A DNA stretch of 63,987 nt, the filler included, from Basidiobolus ranarum (Eukaryota), in assembly GCA_040143965.1 (NCBI GenBank). It is 6 parts of 6 records of this genome, joined end to end, with 100 filler letters (N's around TTAATTAATTAA, not from the genome) between each part and the next. Parts side by side here need not be neighbours in the genome. Positions count along the whole stretch, not along the records: positions 32,128 to 42,719 come from JASJQH010000690.1; 5 more parts are not named here. One strand, given 5' to 3'. The translations under genes were made by a program, and so were the position numbers. Below, piece after piece: positions 16,376 through 49,100 of this stretch (positions are counted from its first letter, which is position 1; the number at the start of each line of letters is the position of its first letter). The notes under the pieces are model-generated. The model had not been told where the DNA came from. It saw only the letters and a program-made list of their open reading frames with translations, and ran no database searches.

Positions 16376-16732
16376 TATTTCTTGGTGGGGGAGGAGTAAG
16401 AAAGAAGCGTGTGATGGTATACTTTAGAGGTCTATAATTAATAATTGGAGAAATCAATCTCTTATCTAACTAATGATGGGGTAAAGGTTAATGGTTTTGG
16501 GAACTTATCTTTTCACTAAACATGGATATCATTTTGTATAATGGACTTTGAAAAACTTAACAAACGTATTTAACTAAATCACCTTTGTTAAACGAACAAA
16601 TTTTCTATAATCGATGTTTCTTGCGTAACTCTATGAGTTGTAATTGGTTTAAATTTTAGAATATTTTTAAATGGATTTATTAAATATAGCGGAGTATTTA
16701 ACAAATGAAATAAACAATTAGATAGATTCGAT

Positions 16733-21118: not shown

Positions 21119-21322
21119 ATGGATAGACTCAGAAAGTGAGAACCCTTCATTCCCTAAATACTTGAGATATATATTTCATTTTTCATTTGTTAACCAATTT
21201 CTTTCTTTGTACAGTTTGTTGGAAATCAAACCCAAGGGTGGTGATGTTGAGCACGAAAATAACCGCTACTGGAGTGAGGATATGGCTCCTCTCCCCGAAG
21301 AAAGACAAACCTGGGATCTTCT
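21119..21322 (+). CDS. Second NCS1-family permease paralog, 5' part, truncated
   Basis: ATG GAT AGA CTC AGA AA|gtgag intron, then LLEIKPKGGDVEHENNRYWSEDMAPLPEERQTWDL. Confidence 0.85.
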
Positions 21323-21422
21323 NNNNNNNNNNNNNNNNNNNNNNNNNNNNNNNNNNNNNNNNNNNNTTAATTAATTAANNNNNNNNNNNNNNNNNNNNNN
21401 NNNNNNNNNNNNNNNNNNNNNN
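21323..21422. other. Artificial contig linker
   Basis: N44-TTAATTAATTAA-N44. Confidence 0.99.
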
Positions 21423-22666: not shown

Positions 22667-23059
22667 TTATATATCTCCAAATGCAACATTTAGTTGATCA
22701 CTAGAATCTCACTCACCGCATATCACTTCACTCCCCTTCACATCATATCATATCATATCATCCATCATCTTTATATTCTTATTAACATTTTTGAACCGGT
22801 AAATTTTCTCTTACATTTCATTAGAAATCTAGCTTAAGTTATGATTAACTTGGATGATTACAGAAATTCAATAACATTAACATTAACCAAAAGTATTCTC
22901 TCTCCTCTATCTTCCCAATCACTTAATCTCAAAACTTCTTATTTCTTCTAGGTATTCAACAACTGATTTAAATGAAATCATTCAACAAATCAACTATATG
23001 TCACACCATGAATGAATTCTTTTATCATCTAGTATTAGTAGTATTATGAATTAAGTAAA

Positions 23060-23141
23060 CTAGATTTCATATCTTAGTGAGTTATAAGATAACTAAGTTA
23101 TATATGACTATATAGGTGTTTAGGCAATGCTAATTTCAACA
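23060..23141 (-). mobile_element. Family 1 LTR terminal fragment
   Basis: TATATGACTATATAGGTGTTTAGGCAATGCTAATTTCAACA is identical to the end of the 2834-3242 copy. Confidence 0.75.
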
Positions 23142-23369
23142 GATATTCCTATTTAGAATATAGGGACTATAGATATGTTGCTTTCTGTTTCTGATATATG
23201 TATCATACCTAAGGTTAACTAAGATGTTGAATAAAGATTAATTATCCAACACAGAGAGTAAGCTGAGGGAGTATAGATAAAAGAAAGATAATAGTCTGTA
23301 GGGTTCTAAAGTATTTTCATCTTAACATTGACTTAGACCTGCCTATCTTTATCATATCATTTAAAGTTC

Positions 23370-23650
23370 AAGTGATTTGAAGAACTAGGAAGAATTGGTG
23401 GTTTTCACTTAATGATTTATTTGAGTATGAGTTGACATTTATACTTTTGTCAAGAAGTAGATCAACCAATGTGTAGAGTACAAAGTTTGGGAACTTTTGA
23501 ACAAGTTTGAGAAAATCACATTATCTGAAAACTTCCAAGTTGGTAAAAATATTCAAAGTAAATTCTGAGTGAAGATATTGAATAATAACATAACTTAAGC
23601 ATCTATATAGTTATATAGCTAGCTACCTAAATCTCACTGTCATTTTCAAC
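23370..23650 (-). mobile_element. Degenerate family 1 LTR
   Basis: GAACTAGGAAGAATTGGTGGTTTTCACTT...AGTTGACATTTATA...CAAGTTTGAGAAAATC...TTTCAACA. Confidence 0.7.
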
Positions 23651-24500
23651 ATTTAGAACTTTCATTCTCTTTTCAATAATGAAAATTCAACTGAATTTAG
23701 AAGATATAGATTTTAATTGAATCTGAATCTGAATCATCATGATATGTATACAATAACATCCATGAAATCGAGAGAAGTGGTAAAGTAAAATTCGTGGAAG
23801 AATGGCAGAAATTAACTGCATTGAAATAGGTATGCATGATAGGTCAGTAATAGGTGTTCATTTCCGGATAATTCTCATACATCTATGATATGATTATTGC
23901 TTGGTATAAATGAAACGCAGAATTCATCGATATACATCCCATTTTCTAAATTAACTTTGTACATTATCAACCTGCAGTACTTGTTGTTTTCTATACGCAA
24001 GATATATTAATAATGGCTATTGTTAACTAGATACTAAAGGCGAATAATACATTAGAACCATATGGTTTTATGTTGTGGAATTTCTGTTTTGTAGTGGTTT
24101 ATTTGCGTTCACGAAAATATCAACAGTTTATAACACTGTACAGACGAGGTCCTTCGTAGTATATTTTGTGTGATTTGTATTTTGGACAGTGCTAGGTGAG
24201 AAGAAAGGAAAACGTGAACTGTAGGAGTTTTGGGCGCACCAAACATTTGGGAATCCGAGTGTGGAGGTGAAGCGAAAAGTAGATGTGGAAGTGAGGTGCA
24301 ATAGGTGTGTGATTGGAGCATATAGAACTGCACCGATTGGTGCTATGTACAATTGAATAATATCTGGTGACGATATGCATGACCAAGTCAGAAAGAGAAA
24401 AATATTTGACCATATGTTTCAAGTGTAATGTGAAACTTAAAAGGCATAAGGGTGGAAAAAGGACAATTTTTAGGTTTGTAAATTTACATAGAGTGATTGC

Positions 24501-28400: not shown

Positions 28401-31400
28401 GGTCAATATGGCAATATATTACGCTATTTTTGTCCAAGAATCGCAATATTTCGTTTAGGAAGTGATGCAACGGTGATGTTGTACTCATTCATAACTCTGT
28501 CAACAGTTTAGATACAAATATGATCTTTTGTAACACGACACAGCTACAGTCTGGACGGATTCTAGAGAAATCCTGATGGATTGCCATATAAAGTAAGTTC
28601 CATTTGTCCACAGGTTACAATCGATTCCAGAGTGTATTCACTAGGAATATAACTGGCGTAGAGCTTGGGCAAGGGAAATTTCCTATTGATAGCCCAAGGG
28701 TGTACGAACCAAATTGGTATTGCTACACAAGTTTCTCCTACCACAATGAGGAGAGAACACGGATTCGACTCAAAGGGTACATATGAGGTTGTACCATTTA
28801 GATGACATCTCCTATTACAACGAAGTAAGCAGGTTGTTGGGAGTTTTATCTGGCTGTTCAGGGTGCTAAGATTCAGAACCGAGTTCTACCTCGAAGGAAG
28901 CAGACGGAAGTACCTTGAACAAATATCTATCCATATTCTATCGGTCACCTTTGACTACGGTAATTGTCTGCCATGAACTCTATTCTATTCCCAGCCCACA
29001 TGTGTAAACCAAAACCGGATGGGACACATATTTAGTTTAGTTAGAAAAAGGAAATATATCTCGCCAGTTGACTGGAAATGGACGGATTGTAAGCGGACAA
29101 TATTTTGGATCTACCAGTAGACTTGATGAATTTTATGTTTGGCATTGTTCTAGTGTACAACTTTGTCGGCATCAGGTTCAGCCAGGTATTATACACAGAG
29201 CTTTAGCAATCAATTAATGTCTCTAATAGTCCAGTATAAGGTCTGTAAATGGTGCATCGATTCCTTTCTTCGCTTACCGGGGATGCATGGTGGATGGCTT
29301 AGCTGGTAGGGGTTTCATTTCTGGGAACAAAGGAAGTTTGATATTAGGTCAAATGTGCTACAGATAAACATAGAAGTGCTGAGCTAATCGCGCACCATAC
29401 AGTACCGGCATGTATCCCCTTTAATTTGTCTCAATTAAGCAAGAAGCATAAGCAGTGTTTAACCTAAAGTGGGGATAGACAGGCTTGCTTCTAGGCAGCG
29501 TACTTTTGACACCGAGCCTCTACGACTTGGTTTCAGATCAACTGAAGCCATCTTCGACTTATTTCTTACACAGGACTTCCTCCCTTTTGTCTATGCATTT
29601 CATGGGCATTTGCTTGATACGATTCTTATTTAATGTATACAGGATTGTTGTTCCTGTGGTGGTGCTAATTTGTCAGATTCTGATGGGGCAGTAGGGAGAT
29701 TAGAGGTCTCCAATTCTAGCAATTTAGTATATAGAAGCTACAACTATTTATCGTTTCACAGACAAAGATTGATTTCATTTTATTGAGGCTGCAGTAACCA
29801 ACAAACATTAATTACCACTTCGCAACAAAGCGTACATGAATCTCGACATTTACATCTCGGATTTTCTGTTCTTCATATTACCATTTAGCCATAAGCGCTC
29901 TACCGGCATAAGCCCAAGAACGGATCCGGGGGAAACTATTCCAGAGACTCCGAAAATGGGAATCTCCAATCTGGTAAAGCGGGAGCGGTACTGGACTAAT
30001 AAAAACCCCTCAGGATTGATACCGAATGAACTGGTATCCAATGGACCAACAGTAAGAGTTGGGACGTTTGTAATATACTGATCCAGAACACACTTTCAAT
30101 TCGTTGACAAAGCTATAGCGATAGAAACTATGCCGACACGGCGCTTACCATTACTGGAGATTCCAAATCCATCCCGTCTTCCATATATATTGGGCCTTTA
30201 AGAAGCTTGTATTTATTTTTAGACCAAGAAAGTCTTGTGAAACTCGAAGTATTTGAAGCAAGGGTGTGCTAAAATAACAGAAGTTGCTACACTGGTTTGA
30301 TCACTAATAAGCCCCCGTTATAAGCAATGTAAACAATCGGTGTGAATAGCAAGTGCCGTACAACATTATTCCAAAGGAAGTGTCCACACAGATTACCATT
30401 AAAAGAACTACCGCAATAATACAAAGCCACCAACTTCTGGACACAAATAATGCTACCCAAGGAGGCTCAAATCGATCCACTGCCAGTAATTGATTGCCAA
30501 GCTCCTCGATCTCCTGAATTTAGCCATAGTATCCGCACTCGATCGATTCCCTAGTAGTAGTTAGCACTAGGCCTCTGTGGCCTTAAATAGAAAATCAAGA
30601 TAGTATAATCGCCCACCTACGAAATCCTACTAGCTTTCGATTTATAGGCGACTTCCAGTCATTCACTGATCCATATTAGTGCTGGCTCTGGTGCTGCATG
30701 GGGTACAATGTTCTACCTGAGCCTGCTGGAGATCAAGTTTATCTGACAAAAAGATCAAAGGAATTACTTTGGCTATAACCTAAGGTTTCATCTTGACCAA
30801 GAAGGGATAAGTGAAGTGTCGGTAAATTCCATCAAGTCAATCTCCTATTAGTGTGATACTCTAGATGAAATGAATCTTGATGCTAAAAGCAAATTATGCA
30901 GATCCTTTTGCTACATTTAGTTTGATGAAAAGGATGATATGGATATTGATCTGCAGAGCCAAACATTCGCATAAAACAGCCAGCATCGGCTCCATCGCCA
31001 TCGTAAAATGAAGGATCGGTAACTACCATCAGTGGCTAACTTGACGCTGTTGGAGAGTCGTTTTGGCAATTGTTACCATGACCTCACCGTTATCCATAGG
31101 CCATATTGACTTGCTCTATCCGTGAAAAGTGGAAGTTATACTGCTCATTACCACAGACATCCTTTTTGCCAATCAACTGGGCCCAGAAATATAGGCCGGG
31201 GCCGGAAATCCAGCAAGCAACGAACAAATCAAGTCTTTTATGATGTGCAAATGTAACCGCATCTATAGTCAAACAACAGGAAACCCCAAGATTAGAGCAA
31301 TCACTCTACAAAATGTTCGATACCATTGTTACGCTAACAAAGGGTTTGGACGTTACTTGATTCATCTCGATAGGTGGAGCTCTGTGTGTCACCAAATGAG

Positions 31401-32027
31401 GAGGAGAGATAAACTGTAAAGATGACTTGGCAGGTCGCGAATATTCTGGTTTTGACTCGAAGATATGCCTCGAACTTTGCGTATCGATAATGTGTATATG
31501 TCTCAGATTGTACTCTTTGAAAGGATTGATTAAAAGCATTTCTTTACAAGATTAGGGAATTGCTTTCCTAATACAACAGTGGGCGTTCCAATAAGGGGAA
31601 ATTAGTCGACTTTCATGGCTCAAATTTTAACTCAATACCGCTCAAATATACGAGGACTTTGATGTCCGGCATATGATAGTGGCACCAAATTCAGCCTTAA
31701 CTCAAGCCACACATATCTGTGACCCCAGACTATAGAGTGTGAGATTTCACCATACTAAATGCAATAAAGCATATCCTATAGCTAATTCGATCCTTGTATA
31801 TTCTCCTTAGCAACCGTACATCTCGCTCTATTTTCTGAGCTTTGACAGCGAAGTAGAAAAGTTAGAACACCAATACTTTCAAGATACACTCACTTGATGG
31901 AGTCTCTATAAATGGCCCATGAATCACATGCTCCATTGATTCTACATATCTCAATTGGATGAGTAGCACTGCTCTCGATATCTATTGAAACATGCAAACA
32001 CTTGTTCAAATGGTACTGTCTATGTAG

Positions 32028-32127
32028 NNNNNNNNNNNNNNNNNNNNNNNNNNNNNNNNNNNNNNNNNNNNTTAATTAATTAANNNNNNNNNNNNNNNNN
32101 NNNNNNNNNNNNNNNNNNNNNNNNNNN
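32028..32127. other. Artificial contig linker
   Basis: N44-TTAATTAATTAA-N44. Confidence 0.99.
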
Positions 32128-32429
32128 TAAAATATCTCAATAAAGGCATGCATATTAATTCAAATTCCTACAGCAGTAAACCCAGTAATTTGCCATTCGA
32201 AAATTATATTTTTGCAAAAATTGCTGGATATTGAATAATGCATGCCAAATTTGAGGATCAATATTTTAACATGTATAAATACCGCCAAGATACCGTCAAG
32301 AAACCGCCATCACACCATCAAAATCCCTGGCAGAATGCAAGCCAACAATATTGTGACGGTTCTCTGATGGTTTTGCTATTTTAGAGGGTGGATCCGATCC
32401 GGATCTAATCAATTTTATTTTTGTTAGGG
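32128..32429 (+). mobile_element. End of a putative DNA transposon (terminus ...TTTTTGTTAGGG)
   Basis: Homologous to ~35480-35753 (same TGTTAGGG end) and, inverted, to ~38770-38900; it cuts off the adjacent Copia integrase. Confidence 0.6.
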
Positions 32430-34380
32430 ACAGTGATAGCAACAGATTCTGCCCAAAAGTTATGATATGAATTTTGTGCAGTTGCCATATATTTTACCAT
32501 TTTGATTATAGTCCTGTTAGCTCTTTCAGCAACTCCATTTTGTTAAGATGAATAGAGGGCAGTAGTTTCTTGCTTATTTTTGCAAAAGTGCTTAAATAGG
32601 ACATGTTCTTGGTGACAGTGCCAGATTTTGCTTAATATATCATATTGGATAAAGTATTTGAAAGTTTATGTGGCACAATTTAGCATAATCCATCACCCTC
32701 TGGCATGATGAATTTCAATTAAATTTACTCAAATAATTTGATCCAAGGTCTGATAAATCCTGGCTCAATGTAACAAGTCTGTATTGTTGAAGTATAATCT
32801 CCCCCATTATTGGTACATATTTTCTGGATTTTGGTTCCAGGTTCAGTCTCCACAAGGGTTTTAAAATCTCTAAAGATGGAGAGGGCTTCTTCTATTCTTT
32901 CCATATGGTACACCCAAATGTTTACTTTATAATCATCAATAAATGTGACTAAATATCTTTTTCCACCAGATGATAAATTTTGCATGCATCCTCACATAGC
33001 TAAATGAATTAGATCCAATATTCTGATAAATTTGATTTAACCAGAGCTCTTGAACAGCTGCCTGGCTTATTTTCCATATATACAACTCTCACAAATTTCC
33101 TTTTTGGTTGGGTGATTGGTTTGAATTCCAGAGATTAGGCAATTTTCAATCATTTTGCTCAAATAATCAAATCCAGTATGGCAAAATCTCTTATTTTGAA
33201 TATTTTCTTGCTTGGAAAAACTTTTATTCATGTATAAACCATGTGCAATATATTGGAGTTTGCATAAGTTCTGCTCTTTTTCTCCCAAAGCTAAATACTT
33301 ACCATTTTGATATGTGATGGTTTATCCTGACTTATCAAAATTGAATCTTAGCCCTTTTTAGGGGGCCTTGTATAGAACTATTAAGAGCTTTTAACACATG
33401 TTTAAAGGTATACACTCTCTCTTCAGAAGCTCCTGTAAAATTGACTTGAATTGTTTCCATTCCAATGGCATCCAATGTGTGGTCATCCCCCCAGAAAACC
33501 TTTGAGGTTTGGATTTCTTCATAAGCCACAAACCAAAGTTTTTCATTTGTGAAATGTTGGGATGCTCCAGAATTAATATATCAGATCTGAGAATCCTTGT
33601 TGGTAGTCATAGATAGAGCAGATATGAAAAAGTGATTTTCTGTTGTAATCACTTTTCCAGATTCAGTACAATTATCTTTGAGCACAATTCTTTGAAAGCA
33701 GCCTTTGCTTGAATGGCCAGTTTTTTTACTTTAAGCACAGAATGTGTACTCTTCTTCTTAAAGTGGTTTTGCCCTTCATAGGAAGGTTTCTCATAGCCTA
33801 CTAAGGCATTTTCTTCATTCTTGTGGTTGGATCCCAGTATGAATAAACCTTCATCCAGAAGTTGCCCTAATACATAATTTAAGATCATATTTTCAGTTCT
33901 TGATTCTAGACCCATTACTAAGCTCTGAAACTGGTGTGGCAGGCTATCAGGACTGCAACTATGATATCTTGGTCAGTATTAGGTACTCCAATGCATTCCA
34001 TTTCATCCTCTAAAGAAGTTACTCTATTAGTTGGTAATTGAATGTCTTCTCCTGGTTTCATCTTTGAGTTAAAGAATTGTCTTCTTAGAAACAACTGGTT
34101 GCCAGCAGAACTTGTTTGGTAGGTGTCTTTTAAGGCTTTCCATACCTTTGTGGCAGCTTTGGCATTTGAGCATTGAATTAGCAATTTGTCTTCAACATTG
34201 AGACAAATAGTGTTAAAGGCACTTTGTTCTTTTTTAACCTGGAATAAAACTTTGGTTTCAGATAGATTGGCATAATTTTCTTCTCCTAACATAGTGTCCC
34301 AAAGTCCCTTTTCTTGCAGCAGCATTTTCACTTGAATTTTTCAAACTTGAGAATGAGTACCATTCAAACTTTGAGAAGAG
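32430..34380 (-). mobile_element. Decayed Ty1/Copia gag-protease-integrase fragment
   Basis: KMLLQEKGLW and LFLRRQFF (gag), YINSGASQHF (protease), CESCIYGK, GGKRYLVTFIDDY, TNNGGDY, QNGVAERANRTI (integrase); many stops and frameshifts. Confidence 0.92.
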
Positions 34381-34513
34381 GGAAAAGTTGCATAATTTTG
34401 AAAAGTACACATTGCAGAGAGTGCAAGTTTGGGCTGATATGTGATGAAATGGGGCTCCATATCGAATTGTCACTATTATCATATGTTGGTTTGCTTAAGA
34501 ATGTATCAGCAAA

Positions 34514-34861
34514 TGTAAAAGTATTTGAGAGCCTGTTGGAAGTGGTTTGGAGAATTTGATGAATTGTTGATTATCACTTATTGATTTGGTGAGCAGAAAG
34601 TTGACATTTACAGTTATGTCAAGATGTAAACAAACTACAGTTTACAATGTGTTAAGGAACATCCCAGGAACATGTGTACAAAGTATGGGGCTCCTAGCAC
34701 ATGTTTGAGAAAATCTATATATCAAGAACTTCTAACTTGGTAAAAATATTCTAAGTAAATTCTAATTGAGAATAAGCAGTAATAGTATTGTGAGATATAA
34801 GATAAATAAGTACTAAGCTACATATGACTGTATAGATGTTTAGGCAATGCTAATTTCAACA
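34514..34861 (-). mobile_element. Solo LTR, family 1, with 5-bp target-site duplication
   Basis: 348 bp with TG...CA ends, flanked by GCAAA at 34509-34513 and 34862-34866. Confidence 0.88.
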
Positions 34862-35049
34862 GCAAAATCAATGATGGACAAAATACAGTGTCTTAAGAAG
34901 ACTCCATACTATGTTAACCTTGCAACTCAGGGCTCCTTTCAATGTGCTCATGGGTTGTTGCATTGTTTGAGCACAATAACAGCAACAAAACCCAATCCAT
35001 GAACACAGTGTGAGTCTCCCTTGGATTTGGGCTAGTTTATCTATGTGAT

Positions 35050-35753
35050 TGTCTGATGGTATTTCTAGGAAAGCTGCAAGACAGACTTCATGGTGAGATA
35101 TATTGAGATATACAATAATAATGTTTTAGCCATTGGGTAATCTATTAAAGCAATGGCATATCTACTTGTGGCTGGACATTTGTTTACTGCAAGTTGGGGA
35201 TATTTTGATGGAATTCTTTACTGAAATTTGCCAAAATCCAAGAGCTTGTTCTTATTGTCAATGGTAACAAGAGTCAGCTATTAGCCAAGTGTCAACACTA
35301 CTCTAAATCTCCACTATTTAGCAATTATTCCATCTTTAGTTTGTGGGTTGAAAATATTGAGGTTGTTGAGTTATGTCTGATCTGTCAAGTATGTGCATAT
35401 GTAGAGTCTAAACTTAACAAGATTGTTGTATTTTTTGATTCTCTTCTTAGTAGGAATATGCAGCTTAAAAAAGATTTATCAAGTCATGCATATGAATTCA
35501 TACTTTTGATGCAGTAAGACCAGTAATTTGCTTTCAAAATTTGTCAGAAATAAATAAAAGCATGCCAAATATGAGGATCAATACTTCTTCATGTACAATT
35601 ACCATTATAGTACCATTAGAAGGCTGCAGTCTCACCTCCAAGATATTTGGCATAATACAAGCCATCAAAAATGTGACAGTCCTTTGATGGCTTTGTGCTA
35701 CTAATGGATGGATCCAATCCAATCCTGATCAAATCAATTCTTTTTTGTTAGGG
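35050..35753 (+). mobile_element. Older copy of the TGTTAGGG-terminated DNA element end
   Basis: Aligns with 32128-32429 and with the reverse complement of ~38770-39243; ends TTTTTTGTTAGGG. Confidence 0.6.
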
Positions 35754-36399
35754 CTTTGGTGTAGTATTCTACACTGTAATCACTTCCATGCTCCACACTT
35801 TTATGCTAATTTGAGCTCAATCATGCTTTGTTATGATTAAATGCAGCTATGGCTTCTGCTTTTAAGTTGAGAAAGAATACCTGAGTGTATGATGTTTTGT
35901 CATCAATTGAGGTCAATATTTCACTTTTGCCACCAAGTGAAACATTTTTCATAATTTCATAAAGTTAGAATGAGTCAGGCTAAATTCTCAGTAGGTGCAA
36001 TTTCTGCAGAGCTTGAAAATGTTGGTCTATGATGTTTCCATGTAGATATTATGATTTGCAAATCTTAGCAGCTTAAGTATCAGTTAAGTTATGCAACATT
36101 CAGTGTCTTCAGTGTAGCAGTACTATCAGTAAATCAGCATTATTGCCTGGTGATTATTATCAGTGCCATCAGTTATCTATTATGTAGATATCAATTGATT
36201 TTAGTCTGCAGTCATATGATGTTCCATTAATTACTCATAGTAGGGCAGATGATAGTCATATAATCACATTCCATGGAGGGTAATATGAACTTATCCCTTC
36301 CTTTCTATTAGATCATATGATCATCTTGACTACACCAACTCAGGATATCTTGACCAAAAATTGTGTCACACCAGTTTGCTATGACTAGATCTGTATTAA

Positions 36400-37160
36400 A
36401 GTCTATGAACTTGAATCTTTCAGCTAGAAGAAGCCTTTATAGCTAGAGGAGTTCAAGAAGCCAGCAAGCTACTCTATACATCCTTGTATTTGACTGATGC
36501 AGCCCTTCAGTGGTATCATATCATAGCTACAGCAGCAGCTACAGGAGAACTACCACCAATCACACCTGACAACAGCTTAACAAAGAGATTCAAGATGGCT
36601 GTGACCCACCACATCAGCAGTAACTATTTAGAACAAAACCCAGATGGTTGAAGTAAGCAATGATTGTTCAGGAATATACTTACCAGCTCAGAAGCTTAAT
36701 TGGCTAGATCAACCATGTGCATCAGCTAGACTAAGTACAGCACTTTGTTGATGGACTGAAAAGAAGAACCAAGATTGAAGTAAGCAACCATGCCCCAGAC
36801 ACCTTACAACAATCAATTAAGATTAAAATAATTGTTGACACAGTCATGTATGGTGAAGGAAAACTATATGCCTTGGAGGGCTGAAAACAGAAACATTACC
36901 CCAGAAGACCAATGGAAAGAACTTTCAGAGAGATTAGTTCCATAAATAGAGAGCTGACTACTAAAAAATGTAAGCAAAGACAATTGTGCTCCTCATGGCA
37001 TACAAAGGGACATTTTGCTTGATATTATCCAGACAGAGAGCCAACAGAAAGTAAGAAGAGCTTTAATGTTGTTGTGACTATAGAAGAGTCAGACAACAAT
37101 TGGGAAGAAGATGCTGAGGCCTTGTTGCAACAAACAGCTGACCATACTTGCAATGTGGAT
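36400..37160 (+). pseudogene. Ty3/Gypsy-like gag relic
   Basis: LYLTDAALQWY at ~36484 and a degenerate zinc-knuckle-like KGHFA near 37005; heavily interrupted. Confidence 0.45.
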
Positions 37161-37169
37161 GAATACTCC

Positions 37170-37290
37170 CTCTAACAGATATTGCAGGATTGTTATTGAA
37201 ATAAAATTATCACCATTTTAATCCATTTTGGATTGACTATTTACTTGCCATCATACAACCATCAAGGTAGATTTGATTTTGATCATTTTT
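37170..37290 (+). mobile_element. Opposite end of the DNA element, old copy
   Basis: CTCTAACAGATATTGCAGGATTGTTATTG...GATTTGATTTT aligns with 42609-42719. Confidence 0.6.
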
Positions 37291-38769
37291 TCAGATTGAG
37301 TAGTGAAATCTCAAGATCTGGCAAAATAGCTGTACATGATTGACTACAATCTCAGAAAACAATGTATCACTCATGTGCAAAAAACATGACTCAAATTTTA
37401 CACTTTCATCACTTGAATGTTAACTTGTCCCTTCAAAATCCCTGGTTTCTTTGATATATTCTCTCAAATATTCATTTAGAGTTTTGGTCAATACCCTGTG
37501 ATATTGCGCCAATATATATTAGATTCTTCACAGATATATGCATGGTCAACCTAGAGTGAGTGTCAAGTTGACTATTCTTTTGAAATCACTTTCTGCATAC
37601 TTGCATACAATTTTGCCCTTAATAATTCTGAAAATACTCCTCAAGCACTTTACCATTTTATACATCCTTGTAGTATGACATTACTGAGGGTGCTTTGTGG
37701 TGTTTGCATGGCTTTTGCTTGCCTTGAAATTTGAGGGTAATCTTAGCACTTTGAAAGGTACCAGTAGAGGTAGGAGAGCATTGGGTTTTATTTGCTACTT
37801 TTTGAGCTTGTTAAGAGAGGCCAGGTGTTGGATAACCTTCCACATTTAGCACTCTTGCAACTGGTATGCTTAGTTGTATGGTAAAATTTGGCCTTTTTGC
37901 CAGTGTATCAGCTGGTCAATCTGACTCTGGAAATTCATATCTTTGTGATAGTGTGAAAAATTTGGTAAGTGGCACCATAGAGCCTAAACTCACTGGCCTC
38001 TTTGCTTATTTCTTGGGTTAACTAAGTACCAGCTCCGTGAGTACATTTTCAGATGCTTTTAGTTCTGTTCCAGGTCAATACAGGCATACATTTTTGTGAT
38101 CCTACATGAGTTGGCCAGCACTAGCCCAAGTGTCATTTACTTGCAAAAATCAAGAATTAGCCATAGGAATTAAGTCTAAACCTTCTAAGTTATTCCTATT
38201 TTTTGGTTTTTCTACAACTGGCTCAAATTGACATGATTCTGGGCAAGACTCTGCACAGTTTCCAAAATGTTAAATTATTCATCATCAGAACAAGTGACAG
38301 CAGCTTTAATGTCTAAAGTGTTTTGGTTTCCTGGTTTTCCTATGAGATTTCTACTTTCACAAGCCCAAGCAATTTTGGGTCTAGGCATGGGCTTAATTGT
38401 CCAACACACTTTCTGCACTCCTAGATTATTATGGTTATATTCATATAAATGATATGGGATTGCTTGAAATCTCTTATATAAATTGATTGAGGGAGCTGCA
38501 TGTTGCTGTAGCTCAGGTACAGCATTCTGAAGATCTTGTATCATTGTTAGGTGACTCTCTAACTGCTGACTAGCTTCCTCAGAACACTGCATATATTGCA
38601 ATACTATGCCATTCTTACTTCTCATGACCTGTAGAGCTACTTCATAATGTTTACCCATAATGGCATAAAACTCATTATGGGGTTCTGCCTGAGATTTCCT
38701 TGTTCTGATCATTTTATCCAACTTCTGTTTTTAGGGGTGTTCAATAGTTAGTTTTGATGCTGTTTATAT

Positions 38770-39243
38770 GCAGTATATGATCTGCATATTTACAATATGT
38801 TATTTATTTTCTGGCAGCTTTTACAAAAATCTGATTTTTGAATGGCAAATTACTGGGTTGACTGCTGTAGAAATTCAAATTAATATGCAAGCCTTTAATG
38901 AGATATCTTAGGCTTTATATACCAGCCATAATGAGAATCAAAAAGTAAAAGAATCTTGTTATTTCTGGTACCTATATATACACATAGTTGACTGAGCTGA
39001 CATAACACAGCAACATCAATATGCTTTACCAGCAAACTGACAGTGAAAAAATTGCTAAACATCTGAAATTTTGAATAGAATTGACACTTGGCAGATAACT
39101 GACTCTTGTTATCATTCACAATGAGAATGAGCTACTGGATTTTGGCAAATTTCCATAAAAAATGCTAAAACAATAAAACTGCATATCTTGATCCATCTCA
39201 CCAAGAAGTCTGTCTTGCAACTTTCCTAGTAGTACTGTCAGAT
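38770..39243 (-). mobile_element. Inverted copy of the DNA element subterminal region
   Basis: Reverse complement matches 32140-32260 and 35050-35400 (e.g. CTAGGAAAG.TGCAAGACAGACTTC.TGGTGAGAT); the match stops at the LTR starting 39245. Confidence 0.65.
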
Positions 39244-39244
39244 T

Positions 39245-42200
39245 TGTTGAGATTAGGGAAATAGCAATGCATTATTTAGTACTTAGTTTATTCATATTCT
39301 GATTACTCAGCACTCAATTCTGTCATTAAAAAATATATGTTTATTGCTCTAATTGATAGAAATATCAATTAGATCACTTTTACTACTGTTCACTATTTCC
39401 TCAAAACTTATCCATATCTCTTCAATTTCACACATGCTCTACAGGTATGTTTAGTATGATCTAAGTATGCCTAATAGTCTTATTTCATAATAAACTGTAA
39501 ATAGGACCTATTCATTTCATTCAAACTTATGCATCTAATTCACAATTCCAAATATTGTCCAAAACACTTCCAAATCCCTTACACACTTTTATCAGGTTAT
39601 GAGCACCAAGCCAGCTGTTAAAGGAATGTCTACCAGTACTAGTACCACCATTTTTACATCTATAGAGAAGTTTAATGGTGAAGACTTTCACCTTTCAAAG
39701 TTAAAGATGCAAATAATGCTAGAAAACAAGGACCATTGGGGATTTGTTACAGGAGACAAATAGAGCCAAAGGGACAACCAATAGCTATCCTTGCCATTCA
39801 CAAGAAGCAGAGGAAAGCACTCTCTACACTCTGTCTACATCTCAGAGACATTCAATTAAGGCTCATATAATCAGCTATGAATATCCAAAATGCTTGGGAA
39901 ACACTTGAGGGAATATATGAGACTAGAAGTCTGGCTAATAGCCTATATCTTAGGTGAAAATTATTCTTAATTCAGATTCAGTTTGATGATTCCATGCTGA
40001 ATCATTTAAATTGGATAAAAACTATGGTAGATCAGCTCTCATCCATTGGTTCACCTCTAAATGAAAGTGACTTAGTCATGACACTACTTGGGAGCTTGCT
40101 AGATGAGTTTGGGCACCACATAAATGCCCTGGAATCAAGATCAGAGCCATGAACAATGGAATAGGTTGGTGCTAGGCTTTTGAAAGAGGAATTCAGGAGT
40201 TAGAGTTCTCAGCAAAATAATGCATAACAGGAATTTTTTGTAGCTATGAAATGTCCAACAGGCTTCAATAATGGTGCCCCTAGTAGGAAATCAATCATTT
40301 GCAGTACTGCATGAAACTAGGCTATTTATTCAAAGATTACAGAATCAGGATTTTTGTGAAAATGCCAAAATTGGAGCAAGCTAATCAAGTGGGCAGTGAC
40401 AGGGACTATCTAGTTGTGTCTGCCCCATTAGTAACCACTAAAGAAGACTCAGAAATGTGGTACCTTGATGCAGGAGCTTCCCAGCATATGTCAAACAAGT
40501 AAGATAGGTTTTCAAGCTTAAAACCAGTCCATTCAAGAAAATTCTACTTGGCTGATGATATGCACTAGATGCAGCTTGTAAGGGCACAGTTGTATTCAAT
40601 TCAGACCAAAATTCAGCTACACCATCTGCAAAATTGGATGAAGTACTCTATGTATCAAATATAGCCAAGAATCTACTCTGAGTAAGCCAGGAACAACTCA
40701 AGGACTAAGTTTTGTGTTTAGCAAGGCAGGATGCAGTATCACAGATCAGAATTATACCAAATTAGTTACTGGGATCAAAACTCAAAACTTATACAAGCTG
40801 GGAATCAACAAGTTGCATTCTGAGCTTGCAAACTTGGCCAATACCAGTGAACAAGCTGTCAAACATGACATACAAGATTTGGCCACATCAGGGATCAAAC
40901 ACTGACCCAAACAATCCAAAATCAGCTACTTTCAGGTTTAGGAATTGAACATATCACTAGATTGGATCTGTGTGAAGGTTGCATATTTGGGACACATCAC
41001 AGACAGCCATTTTCAAGCTCTGAAGAGATCAAATCCACTCTGAATTTTGCCATGATTTATTCTGACCTATGTGGGCCCATGAAAAATGTCTTCCTAGGTG
41101 GGAAAAGATACTTTATGACCTTTATTGATGACTAAAGAAGAAATACTTGGGCAATCTTTCTCAAATCAAGAGCTGAAGACTTAGGTACATTCAAGCATTA
41201 CAAAGCAATGGCAGAGCAAGAAGCAGCACAAAAAATAAGGGTACTAAGATGTGATAATAGTGGAGAATACTACTCTAAAGACTTTGCTGGCTTTTACTCT
41301 AAACATGGAAATAAGCAACAAACTACTGTACCTTATACTCCACAGCTAATTGAAGTTGCAGAACTTGCTACAAGGACCATAGTGGAGATGGCAAGATTAA
41401 TGTTACATGATCAAGAGTTAGATTACCAATATAGCACTGAGTCTGTCTTCACTCCAGCCTAAATTAAATGCAGATGCTCAACAAGATTGTTGCAAAATTC
41501 TAGTCCATTTGAACCCTATATGGATCAAAACCAAATGAGGATCATCTCAGGATCTTTGGTTGCACAGCATATTGCCTAATTCCAGCTCAAAAATGCTCTA
41601 AATTGGAACTGAAAAGCATAATATGCATATTTCTTGGTCACTGTGATAGACCTAAGGCCTAAAGACTCTTTGATACCAAAATTCAAAAGTTAATCAAGTG
41701 CAAAAATGTGCTTTTTGATGAAAAAGTAAATATTTACCCTCAAATCACAGTTCTTAATCCAGAAAACACAAGCTGCACTATTTAGGAAGTGTCTGGCAAA
41801 ATTCCAGATGTATCCAAGATTGCTTCAGCCAAAATCCCAGTCACTTTTACAAAAGAAGATCATTCAGGACCCAGAAGACCATTCAGCAGAAGAAACAAGC
41901 CAGGAAACTAGTGGAAAACTTCCAATGAGGACTTATATGCTTATGCAGCATTTGGTGACAAACCACAGACTCTAGATCAAGCTGTGTAGTGTCCAGAATC
42001 CAAATTATAGGAAAAAGCAGTGTCAGATTAGTGACAGACTGCAGTGATGCAGACTGTGGAAGAAATTTTTATGATCAAAGATCAACAACTGGGTACACTT
42101 TTCTCTATGGTAATGGATCTATAACTTTGAATAGTAAGAAGCAACTAACCATAGCACTTTCCACTACAGAAGCAGATTATATGGCTGCCTCTGCAACTAC

Positions 42201-42482
42201 ACAAGCAGATATATGGTTAAAGAAGTAATTTATATGTTTAGGATACATGCAATAATGTGCTATTACTGTGACTGAAGATAATCAAAGATGCAATTCATTT
42301 GCCAGACCCCTACCTTTCATGTTAGAACAACACATAGAGATATTTGTTGAAATATATATATTAGATATATAGCTACTCATTATTAAGTACTTGGTGTAAT
42401 AAAATTTGGCCTATTTAGCACTCAATTCTGTCATAGAAAGACATGTGTTTATTGCTCTCATTGATAGAAATCTCACTAAGTA
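39245..42482 (+). mobile_element. Decayed Ty1/Copia retrotransposon: 5' LTR 39245-39594, PBS, gag-PR-IN, RNase H, partial 3' LTR 42345-~42482
   Basis: LTR TGTTG...ATCA; PBS GGTTATGAGC; EKFNGEDF gag start; WYLDAGASQHM; CEGCIFG; SDLCGPM; LRCDNSGEY; SDAD..G...QRSTTGY; IALSTTEADYMA. The 3' LTR shares AGCACTCAATTCTGTCAT...TTTATTGCTCT.ATTGATAGAAAT with the 5' LTR. Confidence 0.93.
39595..39604 (+). promoter_or_regulatory. Primer-binding site for an internal (half) tRNAi-Met
   Basis: GGTTATGAGC directly after the LTR terminal CA, complementary to the tRNAi-Met anticodon stem-loop, as in yeast Ty5 and Drosophila copia. Confidence 0.8.
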
Positions 42483-42484
42483 TT

Positions 42485-42608
42485 ACCAGTGTTTTTGAAT
42501 CCAGAGAGAAGCTTGATGGTGAAGACTCTCCCCTTTGAATTTTCAAGATGCAAATGATGCTAGATGACAAGTACGTTTTTGGATTTGTTACAGGAGAAGA
42601 AATAGAGC
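42485..42608 (+). pseudogene. Second copy of the Copia gag 5' end
   Basis: GAGAAGCTTGATGGTGAAGACT...AAGATGCAAATGATGCTAGA...GGATTTGTTACAGGAGA aligns with ~39650-39770. Confidence 0.8.
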
Positions 42609-42719
42609 CCCTAACAGAAATTTGAGGATTGTTATTGTAGGAAAACCATCACAATTTTAATCCATTTGGGATTGACCGTTTACTTACCGTCATAAAATCG
42701 TCAAGTTAGATTTGATTTT
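42609..42719 (+). mobile_element. Young DNA element end (CCCTAACAGAAAT...), truncated by contig end
   Basis: Starts with the inverted counterpart of the TGTTAGGG ends; homologous to 37170-37290; interrupts the gag copy. Confidence 0.6.
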
Positions 42720-42819
42720 NNNNNNNNNNNNNNNNNNNNNNNNNNNNNNNNNNNNNNNNNNNNTTAATTAATTAANNNNNNNNNNNNNNNNNNNNNNNNN
42801 NNNNNNNNNNNNNNNNNNN
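42720..42819. other. Artificial contig linker
   Basis: N44-TTAATTAATTAA-N44. Confidence 0.99.
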
Positions 42820-43335
42820 GCACAACAGATATATCGCGGACGTCGAATTGTTTGGGGAAAGATAGACGCGGTTGAAAAAGCCCTACCAGAGTATGATTGG
42901 TTACTTTGGCTTGATATGGATGCAGTGATCATGAATGAGGACATTCGAGTGGAGGATATCTTGGAGGAATTTCGTCGGGATTTGGGGGATGATTTATTTT
43001 CTAAAAAGAGTTTGTTCGTGACTAAACCAAAACGGGATCCTATGATTAATGCTGGAGTGTTTCTTCTCAAGAATTCCCAATGGTCACTCGACTACCTTCG
43101 CGAGGTACAACACAGACAGGAAAATTACAACACCGTACTCTACGAACAGCGTGCTATGTGGAATGTGGCACGCGAACCCAAATGGGCCGAGGGTGCTCAT
43201 ATCTTCGGAGATACTAGCGTGTTTAATACATTCCCTAACAGCTATGTTCCAGGGAATTTCGTGGTGCATTTCGCACCAGCTGGTTGCCCTGCAGAGGAGG
43301 TCACGCAAGCGCTGAAGAAAAACAAGCACAGGTAA
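42820..43335 (+). CDS. GT34 glycosyltransferase (Mnn10/Gma12-like), C-terminal part
   Basis: VWGKIDAV...YDWLLWLDMDAVIMN (DxD), INAGVFLLKNSQWS, YEQRAM, PGNFVVHFA. Confidence 0.9.
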   Translation, partial: AQQIYRGRRIVWGKIDAVEKALPEYDWLLWLDMDAVIMNEDIRVEDILEEFRRDLGDDLFSKKSLFVTKPKRDPMINAGVFLLKNSQWSLDYLREVQHRQENYNTVLYEQRAMWNVAREPKWAEGAHIFGDTSVFNTFPNSYVPGNFVVHFAPAGCPAEEVTQALKKNKHR

Positions 43336-45800
43336 TCATATGTATGGTGCCATGTTATTTCGTTCATTGGACTTGGTCTACAAGTCTCCATGTGTATATC
43401 TGTTAATCCACTCTCCACCTACCCTCCAGAAAGTTCCAATTTAATAATTCCCTAGAATGATATTCCATTTTTCTGTATAGTATGATTATATTAAAAACCA
43501 GTGAACCATATATAGACACAGTTAAAAATTCCCTTCGTTCATGTTTATAGAGCATTAGAAAGAACCACATCCGGTGCTACTCTAAGCTCTGCCACTCATA
43601 GTAATTAGAACGAATCAGACCTAAAAGTGATCCACATTCCATCCTAGTTGCTTCAAGTAGCTTTTATTATATGAAAGTCGTTGGCGAGCACTTTTTTCTC
43701 ATGTACTACATAGTATCGTACCAATTCCTTATTGGTTGGATGGCTTGATAGCCATATTTCTACTAACGTCATAGATAAAGAGAATACTATCTCGCACAGC
43801 TTGTTGAGAGCTGTTTGTTCTTCCTGCGAACGGTATATCCGGCCAATGTTTGAGCTTGAATCTGTTTGGATCATATCAGGTTTATTGGCGGTGAAACGTT
43901 GTAGCCCATCGATTTTTAAGTAGCAGTAGTTATCAAGCGCAACTTGGGTATCGCTTTCAGACAGTGGAGTTTCAATCTACTTGTGGCAACTCAACTCCAA
44001 ATCCGTATTTGGACGATAGGTTGGACAGTCTTGAAATAGCCACGAACTAATCTGCTATTCTTAGACCCGAGACACCTAGCAGTTGCGGCCTGCTTGTCCA
44101 AAGTTCACATGGGAGTAGTTACACTCTAATCTAAGTCACCATCCCCTATCGTATCACCTGTCACAAAATACAGAAGACTTGAAATGTGAGCGAAAATTCA
44201 AGCCACAATACTGGATCCAACCATGTCTAACAACGCGGGAGTGCTCACGATTGGGTGGGTGAGACATTCAACAGGATTTCATGGAGATTGTAATGTGAGA
44301 TTCAAACACAACTCATTCCACAGCGATTAGATCACATGAACCATTTCCTTATTGGGTAAATGAATTTATTCCGTCATCGACCATGGTTGAGTGCGTTTGA
44401 AGCCTTGAATGGATTTTCAATGTTACGATGTTTATGGTTATGTCGGACCTGTATACGGTGACAGTTTAACCCTGGAGCACAGCATTCGCTTCACTACAGA
44501 ATACCTCTAACCCTCTGAAAATCTTCTCGAGTGATGGTTCTTCTGTAAGCTGGAGACTCATTTGTTCTTCACCAATAGTAACATCCTTGCTACTCAATCC
44601 CAGGTCACCTTCATTCTGTTCACCATGTAAGTTTTGCTTAGAAGTAGTCACGGGCCCCATTCTAACCTACTGATAATCAACCATCACTAAGACACCAGTT
44701 CGGGTGACATGTGACCTAGCCATCACTTGTTAAATAGAAGAAACTTTCAGTGGCATAAAGTTAAATCCATTAGATCGTATCGATGATTACCTACATCAGT
44801 GATCCCATAGATTAATCATAGAATGAGATAGCGAGTAGCATACCATTACAAATGATTCGTCTTCAACAAGTACATCCAAAGGCTGTGACTTGGTAGAAGA
44901 ACGTAAAGAAGTATGTATTAATCTATTGGTAACTCACTCCGGTGGAGAGTGATCTATACATATATGAGTAAATATGTGGTAAACCTCGAGATTTCCACTA
45001 GCCAAGTCTCGAAATCCTGCCATGACGTCATAATGAACCTCATTTTATTATTTTATAGTGGCTAAATTAATGCTATAATTCTAAAATTTTCAACCAAATT
45101 AATCATCAAATAGTTTACTTCATTTTTGGGATTTAATTTAAATGAAGTTAAGCGTGGAGGAACATTTCCATCATATATATCTTGATTAAGTCGATTTTTA
45201 TATATATCCACTCCGAATTGTAACTAAGTGAAACTTTAACAGAAATCCTTTTCTATGCTTTCAATATTCAGTGGCTGTTTCATATGGTTCAACTCTATAG
45301 CACTGGGTTACTATGACCAACGGCCACAGTTTTGGCTGAAAGAAGCTACATGTTAAGTGGTGAACTTCGTGGTTTGTTGGAGATCAAGAAAAGTACATAA
45401 GATCCATATATTTAGCTCTATCAATTGAAAATATATTTCATTTTTGAATGCCATTGCACTTAATATGGTCAACTTTTGAAATTATGGGAAACCTTTATAA
45501 TACTAATGGCTAGTAAAAAGCTACTTTGACTTCTGGGATAGAGAGTTCCGCGTTAAATCTCATTAAAATAGTCAATTCTAACAAATGGACATGTAGTAGT
45601 AATATAGTCATGTTTCGCCGTTGGTTAGTTGATCCTATGCAAACATATTTCTCAAACTTTCAAGTGTTGCTCCAAAGGTCATTGTGCTTAACGGTAAATG
45701 TTCTTATATTACAGCTGAATGATGAATTTATGGCGAATATTGAGTCTTTGTGAAGATGGTATCAGGATATGCAAAGGCTTTTTTGAACTCAAGATGTTTA

Positions 45801-46139
45801 TGTTGAAATACGCATAGCCTAAACACCTATATAGTCATATATAGCTTAGTATTTAGCTAATCCATATTGAACTAAGATAGCACCTCAAGAGGAATTTACT
45901 TACAGTATTCTTACCAACTCAGAAGTCTCAGATATACATATTTTACAAACTTGTGCTAGAAGCCCCAAACTTTGCACCCAAGTTGGTGGGACTTTTCTGA
46001 ACATATTCTACACGTGTATTTCTCCCATCTCGCCAAAACCATAAATGTCAACTTTTCACTCAATATATCAATATGGGAAAACCATCAGTTTTTCTAGTTC
46101 TTCAAACCACCTCCTACCAACTCCCGAAATATTTCAGCA
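45801..46139 (+). mobile_element. Solo LTR, family 1
   Basis: TGTTGAAATACGCATAGCCTAAACACCTATATAGTC...AAACTTGTGCTAGAAGCCCCAAACTTTGCAC...ATTTCAGCA. Confidence 0.82.
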
Positions 46140-49100
46140 AAATGAGTCTTTGCAATAGTCAGAAAGAGGGGGGAGGGGGAGTGGAGTATTTCAGAAGTTT
46201 TGAGCAACCTATAAAATTTTTCTTTTTTGCAATATTTTTAAGATGTATTCAATGAGGATGTCACAACTTCGATTTTGGTGTATACTGCTTTAGATTTTCT
46301 ACATCATATTTATCTATATATCCAACTATATCACATATCACAATATCTTGATTCCATATATATTAGCTGAGTAGCGGCTAGCTCAATGTTTATCTGTACC
46401 CTAGTGAATTAACCAAGTTGAACTTGAAATTTAACGGATGCTTAAACAAATCCTAGGATGCTACACCTTTGTTACAGGTGATTGAATTGATAACATTTGC
46501 AATCCTTTCAAAATCCAGACAAGAAAGTTGTAATTTTCAGTATTCAATATGAACATTTAGATGATTATCCCTACTACATCAGCAGTTCACTCTCACAGAT
46601 ACTCTTCACAAGAATAAATATGAAGATCACAACTTTCAACAGAAACATGAGATGGACATATTTAAGCGGATAGTTTCCGTATCTACTCCTTCAACTACTT
46701 TATCACATTGGCCAGTTTTCCTGGAAATTTCTAACAATCAAGATACCATTGGCTTACCATTCCATTGCTTGCTTGGTTGTTATCTAAGAACTATATATTA
46801 CTCACATAGAGATGTCAATATCCCCCATAACATAAGTTTCGCGCCTCATTAATTGTATATTAAACTTGGAATTTTTAGAATTTTGCTTCTTGATACTTGC
46901 GATTGATTTCGCAGTAAAATAATCCTAGTATTGTTGACAAATGGATGTGGCAAAATACTTGAATTCAGCATCCAAAACATTGACATGCCTGTCACATATA
47001 ATATTTATTTAAAATGTATTGCCACACTGCAGTAGAATTGGGAGTGCAATTGGAAGTGTATAGGATAAGTAGAAGTAATATATGATTTATATGTAATACT
47101 CTATATTACAATAGGATGGTGTTATTCGAATGCTGAGGAGGATGGGAAAGGGTTTCAAAACTCTTCTTTTTCTTAACATGGGATAGATATCAGAAGATGA
47201 AATCTTCGAATTGATCTAAAATTTACCAAACTTTTTCTGAAACTTCCTAGTATCCTAGTAACCATGTGTTAGTGCTTAAGTCCAATGTGGCAACATCCTC
47301 GATACCTGACACTGGCTTGAAACCACATACAAGCAGTATCTATATGGTGGCACTATTGTAATCATGCACTATCTTGATCAATTAATAACTTTACCAATAC
47401 TCGGTCTGAGTCTGTTTCCATAAGAATAAACACTAATTAATGGGCTGAAGAGCCATTCTTTATCTCTACTCCTATCCTGGATTCAGAGACTCCCAGGCAA
47501 TTCTCTCGATAATGGGAATGCTTCGAAACTGCAAGTAAATGAGAAATCACATATTTTGGGTTTGGCACTAGAAAGCAATCATTTTCGCTGCATTAAATAA
47601 GCTATCATGATGAATAATTTGCTATCGAAACTACTATGACAAACTACACTGCCAACGTGCAGCGAGGCATTTGCTGGCTATCAATGTATTGGTGGAGTAT
47701 GTACTGCTATATATAGCCTGTTAATGTCGAACCTTGTGTCGGCATTCCTGTTGAAGTTCACATAGCTTGACTAACATCTCTCTCTTTCTACAACACATCA
47801 GAATTGGTACGGCCAAAGCATTATGTGATCTGAAAAGACACTGACCTGAAAAGACAAGCACCAGAATGTGAATCTCTTATTAGGACTGCAAGTATTTATG
47901 TTGAATATGCTTAGTAACTGTCAATCTGTGCCACATGTTACCGATAATTGAATCTAAATACATGGGTCAAGACAGCTGAATAAAATCGCAACCAAGCTTA
48001 CCTAACCATATATAATGGCTTAGGGGAAATCGGGCTCATATTTTCCCGATACAATTGAAAAAGGAATGCTTTGTTGGATCGTGGACTTCATAGTATATTC
48101 ATCACCAACGCTGAAATAGAATTGTGATTCCAAAATCGGCGCAGAACAAACACGACCATTACTAGTTATATGCTGAAGTCACATTCTTAATCTGGCAGTG
48201 GTACAAGTATGGAAATCGAGGTGGCCCAATTTATACTCCTTCATTTACTGGTCCATCTTTGTAATACTGCCGAGACAGGTGTGAATTGCTTTTAACTTTT
48301 GAATTCAGCATTTTTGGTGTGGTGCTACAGCTGTCCAGGATACCATTTCATGACATTTCCCATTATGCTCCAAAAGCGGATCCATTCCATTGTAAAGCTT
48401 ATTTAATCGGCAAGCCGTGGTTGATCAGAGTTATCCAACACGTAGCAGGGGTTTCTTGGGCTATGGCCAATCTTCTATTTTGGAGAGGACATTTCAAGGC
48501 ACATTCCGGTTTAAATATGCGATAATCTAGTGCTGGGAGAAACCATTTGAGGTGGCTGAGAGCATCTTCTTGAGTGATGTGGCTGAGATACTCCCGTTGG
48601 CTGGGAATAAACACCACAAGCAAGTATTTCCAGGGATATCTTGGATGTAATTACAACTTTGTCCCTCTAAGCTCCGATTTTTCAGTTAGTATCTAAGCAG
48701 CGATCAGGTATGTTCGAGATAAACCTCATCAAGAATATATGTGTTGTCTGATGGATATTGGTGGCCTGATTATATTTGTACAACACAGAGCGCTTTTTTT
48801 GCAGAATAGCAATGCTCTGTGCAGAATCCCATATTTATGAAATCTCTGCATTCTTCTCTATCAAATCCAAATATCATGAAATCCCGAGTTTCCGACCGGA
48901 GCGGCTTCCTCCGATCAAACAATATTTGCAACATACATATCACGTGGCTTTGTCGACACATAGGTTAGTCACAGAACCAACCCATCATTGCTGTAGGTAG
49001 ATGCAAAACATATACGACGCTCCCATGAAATTGACCATTGGATGTTCTACAAGATTCTGATCTTCATCTGATTTTATCCTCTGGTTTCTTAAAACATCGA

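Follow-up and report, generated by a model that had tools for sequence, protein, structure and literature searches.

Near-complete loss of CpG from a nest of decayed transposons in Basidiobolus ranarum, a probable footprint of repeat methylation

The window analysed here, a stretch of 63,987 bases from the zoopagomycete fungus Basidiobolus ranarum, comprises six complete contigs, each about 10.6 kb long, with spacers between them. Nearly all of its fourth contig (c4) is occupied by a zone of transposon relics, at 32430-42608, from which the dinucleotide CpG has almost vanished. The layout of the window is as follows.

Contig spans: c1 1-10614, c2 10715-21322, c3 21423-32027, c4 32128-42719, c5 42820-53409, c6 53510-63987.
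Joints: 10615-10714, 21323-21422, 32028-32127, 42720-42819, 53410-53509, each composed of 44 N, TTAATTAATTAA and a further 44 N.

As the window is made of six joined contigs and is not one locus, arguments from neighbourhood across the joints are meaningless. The host had been taken from the sequence for a probably early-diverging fungus, and this was borne out. A reading frame for eIF3c (12514-14535) has 100% identity with a protein carrying the NCBI name Basidiobolus ranarum and 87% with that of B. meristosporus, and in a glycosyltransferase tree of 33 of the 120 listed matches, hand-picked across phyla, the window protein groups with Zoopagomycotina and Kickxellomycotina with 98% support in the Shimodaira-Hasegawa-like approximate likelihood ratio test (SH-aLRT). 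A repeat of about 350 bp, here called R350, has a copy in all six contigs, which shows that c4 and the genic contigs come from one genome; this membership is also backed by an open reading frame (ORF) of the zone whose paralogue is named B. ranarum. The features of c4, which include copies of a repeat with possible terminal inverted repeats (TIRs) and a repeat resembling a solo long terminal repeat (LTR), are listed below with the ratio of observed to expected CpG (o/e) where it applies.

32128..32429, plus strand: 3' end of a young TIR-like repeat at the left end of c4; 7 CpG in 302 bp, o/e 0.76.
32430..34433, minus strand: decayed Ty1/copia copy A, with gag, protease-region barrel, pre-integrase and integrase core; no CpG.
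34514..34869, plus strand: R350 copy of the zone, about 350 bp with TG...CA ends, solo-LTR-like; 0 CpG.
35052..35753, plus strand: old TIR-like copy, 3' part, CpG-free; 68% identity to 32140-32429.
35754..36039, minus strand: copia integrase fragment, inverted with respect to 40990-41280, 70% identity.
36415..36881, plus strand: possible Ty3/gypsy gag remnant; Pfam Ty3_capsid, E 0.0012, 18.7 bits, under the 29.1 cut-off.
37160..37285, plus strand: old TIR-like copy, 5' end, CpG-free; 83% identity to 42608-42719.
38278..38730, minus strand: open frame of 151 amino acids (aa), the longest in the zone, with a paralogue in B. ranarum.
38790..39242, minus strand: old TIR-like copy, inverted and truncated (inverted repeats I1, I2 and I4; blastn 73-84% identity).
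39252..42230, plus strand: decayed Ty1/copia copy B, with gag, pre-integrase, integrase core and pol tail; contains a TGA at 39955.
42360..42608, plus strand: start of a third copia copy, with leader and gag N-terminus, cut by the young repeat; one CpG, at 42574.
42609..42719, plus strand: 5' end of the young TIR-like repeat at the right end of c4; 3 CpG in 111 bp, o/e 1.03.

Judged from its sequence, the zone is a nest of long-dead elements, with at least three Ty1/copia copies, a solo-LTR-like repeat, TIR-like copies and a possible trace of a Ty3 gag. The Pfam scan of the zone gave matches in seven of the 22 stop-to-stop ORFs of at least 60 aa, four of the seven above the curated cut-off. 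Copy A, with many stops and frameshifts and its left end truncated by the young TIR-like repeat, matches Retrotran_gag_2 (1.4e-25), Pol_BBD (7.9e-13), gag_pre-integrs (2e-9) and, weakly, rve (1.3e-3). In copy B, which also has many stops and frame changes, Retrotran_gag_2 was recognized (8.1e-10), with gag_pre-integrs and rve under their cut-offs. The two decayed elements share the copia-type domain order of gag, protease region and integrase; the reverse transcriptase region of the copia copies was not recovered by Pfam among the same 22 ORFs. One intact relative of the copia gag, a 570-aa protein designated P0121, was the sole match among 78 candidates. By tblastn it is 52-56% identical to copy A over 32797-34433 and 33-36% identical to copy B, and its residues 494-536 and 16-57 match the integrase fragment (at 35824-35952) and the third copia copy, respectively. 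Direct repeats D2 and D3 further relate the third copy to 39252-39372 and 39640-39756 at 78-79% identity. P0121 was considered as a stand-in for the ancestor of the copia gag and was rejected as too distant (54%).

Classification is poor for the middle of the zone, where none of the Pfam matches to the 60 short ORFs scanned at 34860-39560 reached its threshold. For the 151-aa frame no Pfam family was found, and it has four matches in 1.84 billion representatives, the best of them (P0122, 59% identity) being named as a hypothetical protein of B. ranarum. The frame may belong to a gene that is carried by a repeat and falls outside the known classes.

The left edge of c4 terminates in TGTTAGGG and the right edge begins with CCCTAACA; 12 of the first 13 bases of the right edge are identical to the reverse complement of the left edge end. 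These mutually inverted outer termini suggest a TIR-bearing element, and c4 seems to be bounded on either side by the two extremities of a single young element whose short ends are inverted. Young insertions of this kind are present in high copy, and it was probably within them that the assembly broke. Among the old copies, the left edge is matched at 35466-35760 and, in inverted orientation, at 38790-38915, both sites being CpG-free.

Only four CpG were found in the 10,179 bp of the zone (34463, 37507, 38036 and 42574), giving an o/e of 0.012. The first-pass annotation had seen isolated CG only, naming 34463 and 37507, and both are among the four. Its boundaries also proved exact: 32429/32430 and 42608/42609 are the junctions of the CpG-bearing younger repeat ends with CpG-free DNA. 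GpC is not depleted in the zone (o/e 1.24), and TpG and CpA stand at 1.33 and 1.42. Contigs c1, c2, c3, c5 and c6 have CpG o/e values of 0.66-0.71. When their stop-to-stop frames of at least 100 aa are taken as an ORF proxy and all else is counted as non-ORF, the ORF proxy gives 0.73, in keeping with the earlier impression that genes elsewhere are CpG-rich by comparison, and the non-ORF DNA gives 0.65 (741 CpG in 33,644 bp). Equality between the zone and this intergenic background had been named beforehand as the outcome that would speak against CpG-targeted loss, and it was not what was found: the zone lies about 50-fold under the background (0.012 against 0.65). Were the zone as dense in CpG as the other contigs, it would be expected to have 263, and the Poisson probability of four or fewer is then 1.4e-106. 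In the zone the count per 1-kb window is 0-2 CpG throughout (n=92); elsewhere (n=482) the median is 26 and the minimum 1. Ranked by length, the first three CpG-free stretches of the window (4,537, 3,043 and 2,062 bp) all lie in the zone, and the fourth, of 971 bp, is in c3.

What was lost as CpG is largely found again as TpG and CpA. Compared with the other contigs, the zone has 259 fewer CpG, 103 more TpG, 115 more CpA and 7 fewer TpA, and the joint excess of TpG and CpA (218) covers 84% of the CpG deficit, on the presumption that the elements started with an ordinary CpG content. The GC content of the zone is 35.7%, against 38.6% elsewhere, a drop of about the size predicted from CpG loss alone. 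Three stretches of the zone without identified homology are also affected, with 0, 0 and 2 CpG where 6.9, 6.7 and 21.6 are expected; these stretches could be repeats that may have gone unrecognised. Loss of CpG across unrelated families and in such stretches fits a mark laid over a whole domain and not only over recognisable duplicates.

The direction of change can be read from pairs of copies. Six alignments of outside copies with zone copies were used, three of them R350 pairs and the others matching the two contig edges with three old copies. In none of the 14 ungapped cells is CpG kept in the zone copy (four further CpG fall on gaps, and site 32198 enters twice); in its place stand CA in 8 cells, TG in 1, TA in 2, CT in 2 and AG in 1, so that 11 of the 14 became CA, TG or TA. 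In the same alignments the remaining 15 dinucleotides are retained in 50-77% of cells. The young right edge had been compared at 42672 with an old string placed at 37232, which is actually at 37233, and the change of all three CpG was confirmed, as TA, CA and CA in the copy at 37160-37285. The second pair put forward at that time, GTGACGGT at 32353 and GTGACAGT at 35673, is likewise present and mutually aligning. Among the seven CpG of the left edge, six are ungapped against the copy at 35052-35753 and all are changed (CA 4, TG 1, CT 1), with one gapped. The claim of a change directed at CpG, towards TA and CA, is therefore upheld by the copy pairs.

The context of the edge CpG is CCG in seven cases, ACG in one and TCG in two, and all ten are changed or gapped in the old copies. 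The loss thus extends to CCG and ACG and is not limited to TCG. Nor has there been a general storm of C-to-T change: over six zone-to-zone pairs with 1,063 aligned sites there are 116 transitions and 127 transversions. TG opposite CA is the commonest double mismatch between old copies, but with 7 of 60 it gives a weak signal of independent decay. The codon at 39955 was confirmed as TGA and falls on an Arg position of P0121, as had been expected from the gag reading; its origin from CGA is ambiguous, because the sister copy reads AGA and the stop is derivable from either codon. Where Arg is retained in comparison with P0121, it is encoded by AGR codons in 15 of 15 cases.

The R350 family extends the comparison beyond the zone. 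Its copies and a second CpG-free island are listed here.

R350 copies: 2896-3242, 19654-19988, 23069-23141 with 23370-23572, 34514-34869, 45793-46142, 53510-53706.
22798..23768, no strand assigned: second CpG-free island, in gene-rich c3 between two genes, surrounding two R350 fragments.

R350 occurs once per contig in the six contigs, or about one copy per 10 kb, and its copies are 67-91% identical; the zone copy has 67-83% blastn identity to those in c1, c2, c3, c5 and c6. All copies are CpG-poor (o/e 0-0.52), including those in gene-rich contigs. Nine columns of the R350 alignment have CG in at least one copy, and in these columns 16 of the 28 cells of the other copies read TG (7), CA (5) or TA (4). 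Of seven dinucleotides compared, CG is the least conserved (0.26, against 0.32-0.54). The island in c3 has 0 CpG in 971 bp where 12 would be expected at an o/e of 0.65 (P 6e-6), with 28% GC, and resembles the zone on a small scale. The depletion is thus confined to repeats: non-ORF DNA (0.65) and ORFs (0.73) are spared, and the one long CpG-free stretch outside the zone flanks repeat fragments. A gradient is also seen, from 0.76 and 1.03 in the young edges through 0-0.52 in the dispersed R350 copies to 0.012 in the old nest, with few points and relative ages. As an observation of its own within the genic DNA, the eIF3c gene region (12001-14000) has a CpG o/e of 0.50, against mostly 0.65-0.88 in the other genic 2-kb windows.

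The zone therefore shows a loss specific to CpG, a matching gain of TpG and CpA, restriction to repeats and a consistent direction in copy pairs. The best explanation for this pattern, and in our judgement the probable one from the sequence at hand, is methylation-driven decay of CpG to TpG and CpA in a silenced transposon nest; both the methylation and the enzymes laying it down are inferred. Basidiobolus repeats would carry symmetric CpG methylation, maintained by a system of the DNMT1/UHRF1 type. The 5-methylcytosine (5mC) would deaminate to thymine, the resulting T:G mismatches would often be fixed, and CpG would be lost one by one in a decay that is ongoing or of long duration. A suitable tool-kit is listed for the congener B. 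meristosporus, whose row in the fig1-data1 table of Funabiki et al. (2023; PMC10538959) has DNMT1 (ORX99839), two Dim2-class enzymes, UHRF1, two HELLS and DNMT2, with DNMT3, DNMT5 and DNMT4 (the RID class) marked ND and the 5mC column empty. In Phycomyces, 5mC is described as lying nearly all in repeats and chiefly at CG, as in the zoopagomycete Linderina (Lax et al., 2024; PMC11258239), and high mCG is recorded in the transposable elements (TEs) of Rhizophagus (Dallaire et al., 2021; PMC8647823).

The strength of the implied loss was estimated in two ways. At equilibrium, with 788 TpG and 816 CpA sites open to back-mutation and four surviving CpG, the CpG C-to-T rate would be about 111 times the non-CpG C-to-T rate (Poisson range 43-409). 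A forward simulation was run from the first 10,179 bp of c5, with 263 CpG, as stand-in for the ancestor; it is a crude model with a transition to transversion ratio of 1, AT-biased transitions and five runs per setting. A 10-20-fold CpG effect left 30-173 CpG at divergence 0.05-0.25, a 100-fold effect left 3-16 and a 200-fold effect 1-8. These models suggest a depletion more complete than ordinary passive decay would give, and under them newly arisen CpG must be removed too. The process would then be still running or long-running, because CpG newly made by ordinary mutation is also removed.

Several points weigh against decay by methylation. The mammalian CpG effect is about 10-20-fold, and the depletion here goes far beyond a mammal-like effect, about 100-200 times background being needed in the simulation. 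The copy-pair sample is small, with 14 cells and one site counted twice, and CA and TG appear in it as 8:1, though the zone overall is symmetric (788 TG, 816 CA). Where the outgroup P0121 has Arg, 8 of 46 positions read Cys, Trp, stop, His or Gln, and where it has Lys, 16 of 112 do so, a comparison that points neither way. Furthermore, 5mC is called scarce in Zoopagomycota overall by Lax et al. (2024; PMC11258239).

An active process, which the first-pass annotation had offered beside deamination of 5mC, is the alternative that survives best, although it appears rather unlikely to us. A CpG-specific hypermutation of repeats, resembling repeat-induced point mutation (RIP) without RID, would have a DNMT1- or Dim2-class enzyme catalyse or promote deamination on repeat or heterochromatic DNA, and would strip CpG much faster than passive decay of 5mC. 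The extreme depletion and the implied CpG C-to-T rate of about 100-200 times background point in this direction, but a high rate ratio is also explicable by weak T:G repair or by long dormant phases. In Neurospora, Dim-2 drives a RID-independent RIP pathway, which counts towards an activity of this kind. The two Dim2-like genes of B. meristosporus count towards it as well, against which the RID class is marked ND in the same table (Funabiki et al., 2023; PMC10538959), and possible RIP outside Dikarya has been raised for entomophthoralean fungi, in a study using no index other than the classic composite one (Stajich et al., 2024; PMC11105155). The record of the zone itself agrees less well with hypermutation. 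Sites other than CpG show no excess of transitions, the depletion is graded and not all-or-none, and CpG is absent also from stretches without a detectable repeat partner and from copies now less than 80% identical, where homology-guided RIP should stop. A fuller version of the same idea appears more doubtful again: Basidiobolus would possess a RID-independent, strictly CpG-directed repeat hypermutation in which a DNMT1- or Dim2-class enzyme deaminates or marks its targets, at least 100-fold over background and including new CpG in copies too diverged for RIP. If this were true, Basidiobolus would have a genome defence akin to RIP, outside Dikarya and with another target and another trigger.

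It is very improbable that the elements were CpG-poor from the start, whether by intrinsic avoidance of CpG or by coming from a foreign CpG-poor source, with no decay in place. Such an origin would agree with the low CpG of every R350 copy in the window, in gene-rich contigs too. However, the younger copies, at o/e 0.76 and 1.03, have CpG exactly where the old copies read CA, TG or TA, the loss is common to several unrelated families, and the excess of TpG and CpA offsets 218 of the 259 missing CpG. A foreign source is opposed by the repeats that c4 has in common with all five genic contigs; together with the CpG-bearing young copies, these shared repeats largely refute a CpG-poor or foreign origin, and contamination likewise. 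A sequencing or assembly artefact, from consensus errors at modified CpG or from conversion-chemistry reads, is hardly credible, had nothing found in its favour and was rejected: c4 has ten CpG in its ends (7 and 3) and four in the zone, the neighbouring contigs are normal, and the changes lie within copies 17-32% diverged, which marks them as old sequence change and not as base-calling error.

Three further features of the window lie outside the zone. A 106-bp inverted repeat with 92% identity (10815-10920 and 21217-21322) is located near both ends of c2. Two long frames rich in Ser, Thr, Pro and Glu and with internal repeats were found at 52639-53457 (minus strand) and 57805-58683, and have the look of low-complexity proteins of a secreted or wall type. 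Self-matches by blastn at 52924-53396 fall within the first of these frames.

Decay of CpG is a standard footprint of heritable repeat methylation. If methylation-driven decay is indeed the cause here, its near-total extent in Basidiobolus implies that CpG methylation has long been aimed at repeats in a zoopagomycete lineage, where 5mC has been called scarce (Lax et al., 2024; PMC11258239). The footprint would also provide a cheap map of silenced repeat domains in the fragmented assemblies of such fungi. An effect of about 100-200-fold, obtained from a simple model, raises the question of whether passive deamination is enough or whether an enzyme-assisted eraser of CpG, related to the origin of RIP, acts in early-diverging fungi. 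The process is of a known kind. It is found here with near-total completeness and in a lineage for which the literature search found no report of 5mC mapping or CpG decay in Basidiobolus.

RIP of the Neurospora type, which depends on RID and is CpA-biased, is likewise directed at repeats and inactivates transposons by irreversible C-to-T change. RIP is indicated by a TpA/ApT index above about 0.89 and a (CpA+TpG)/(ApC+GpT) index below about 1.03. The zone gives 0.78 and 1.63, opposite in direction, and the pattern is thus, as first proposed, unlike the CpA-biased RIP of Neurospora. The strong transition excess of that process is also missing in the zone (116 transitions, 127 transversions), the GC content is down by just 2.9 points, and the RID class is marked ND in the congener (Funabiki et al., 2023; PMC10538959). 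In the RIP-like TpCpG hypermutation described in Pucciniomycotina (Horns et al., 2012; PMC3318451), repeats similarly lose C before G, but strictly at TCG, whereas the zone has lost seven CCG, one ACG and two TCG.

Where CG 5mC has been mapped and found confined to repeats or TEs, as in Phycomyces and Linderina (PMC11258239) and in Rhizophagus (PMC8647823), methylation is seen directly that would be the presumed cause of the loss in Basidiobolus, whose zone is known from its mutational footprint alone. The nearest counterparts of the footprint come from Dikarya. In Microbotryum, Puccinia, Melampsora and Tuber the C-to-T changes of TEs are concentrated at CpG (Amselem et al., 2015; PMC4352252), a signature tied by these authors to a Masc2/DNMT1-class enzyme and the absence of RID; that survey covers Dikarya only and picked copies by a transition to transversion ratio above 2, against about 0.9 among the old copies of the zone. 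The CpG-directed changes in the rusts, Microbotryum and Tuber have been attributed to deamination of 5mC (PMC4352252; PMC8063080), and the same cause is given for Austropuccinia psidii by Tobias et al. (2021; PMC8063080). As in the zone, the TEs of A. psidii show a CpG depletion rising with age, a lower GC content and no classic RIP signal. A. psidii differs in belonging to the Basidiomycota, with a DNMT1/DNMT5 tool-kit and a genome-wide trend (PMC8063080), while Basidiobolus is a zoopagomycete with DNMT5 marked ND in its congener (PMC10538959) and a loss of CpG that is near-total, at an o/e of 0.012.

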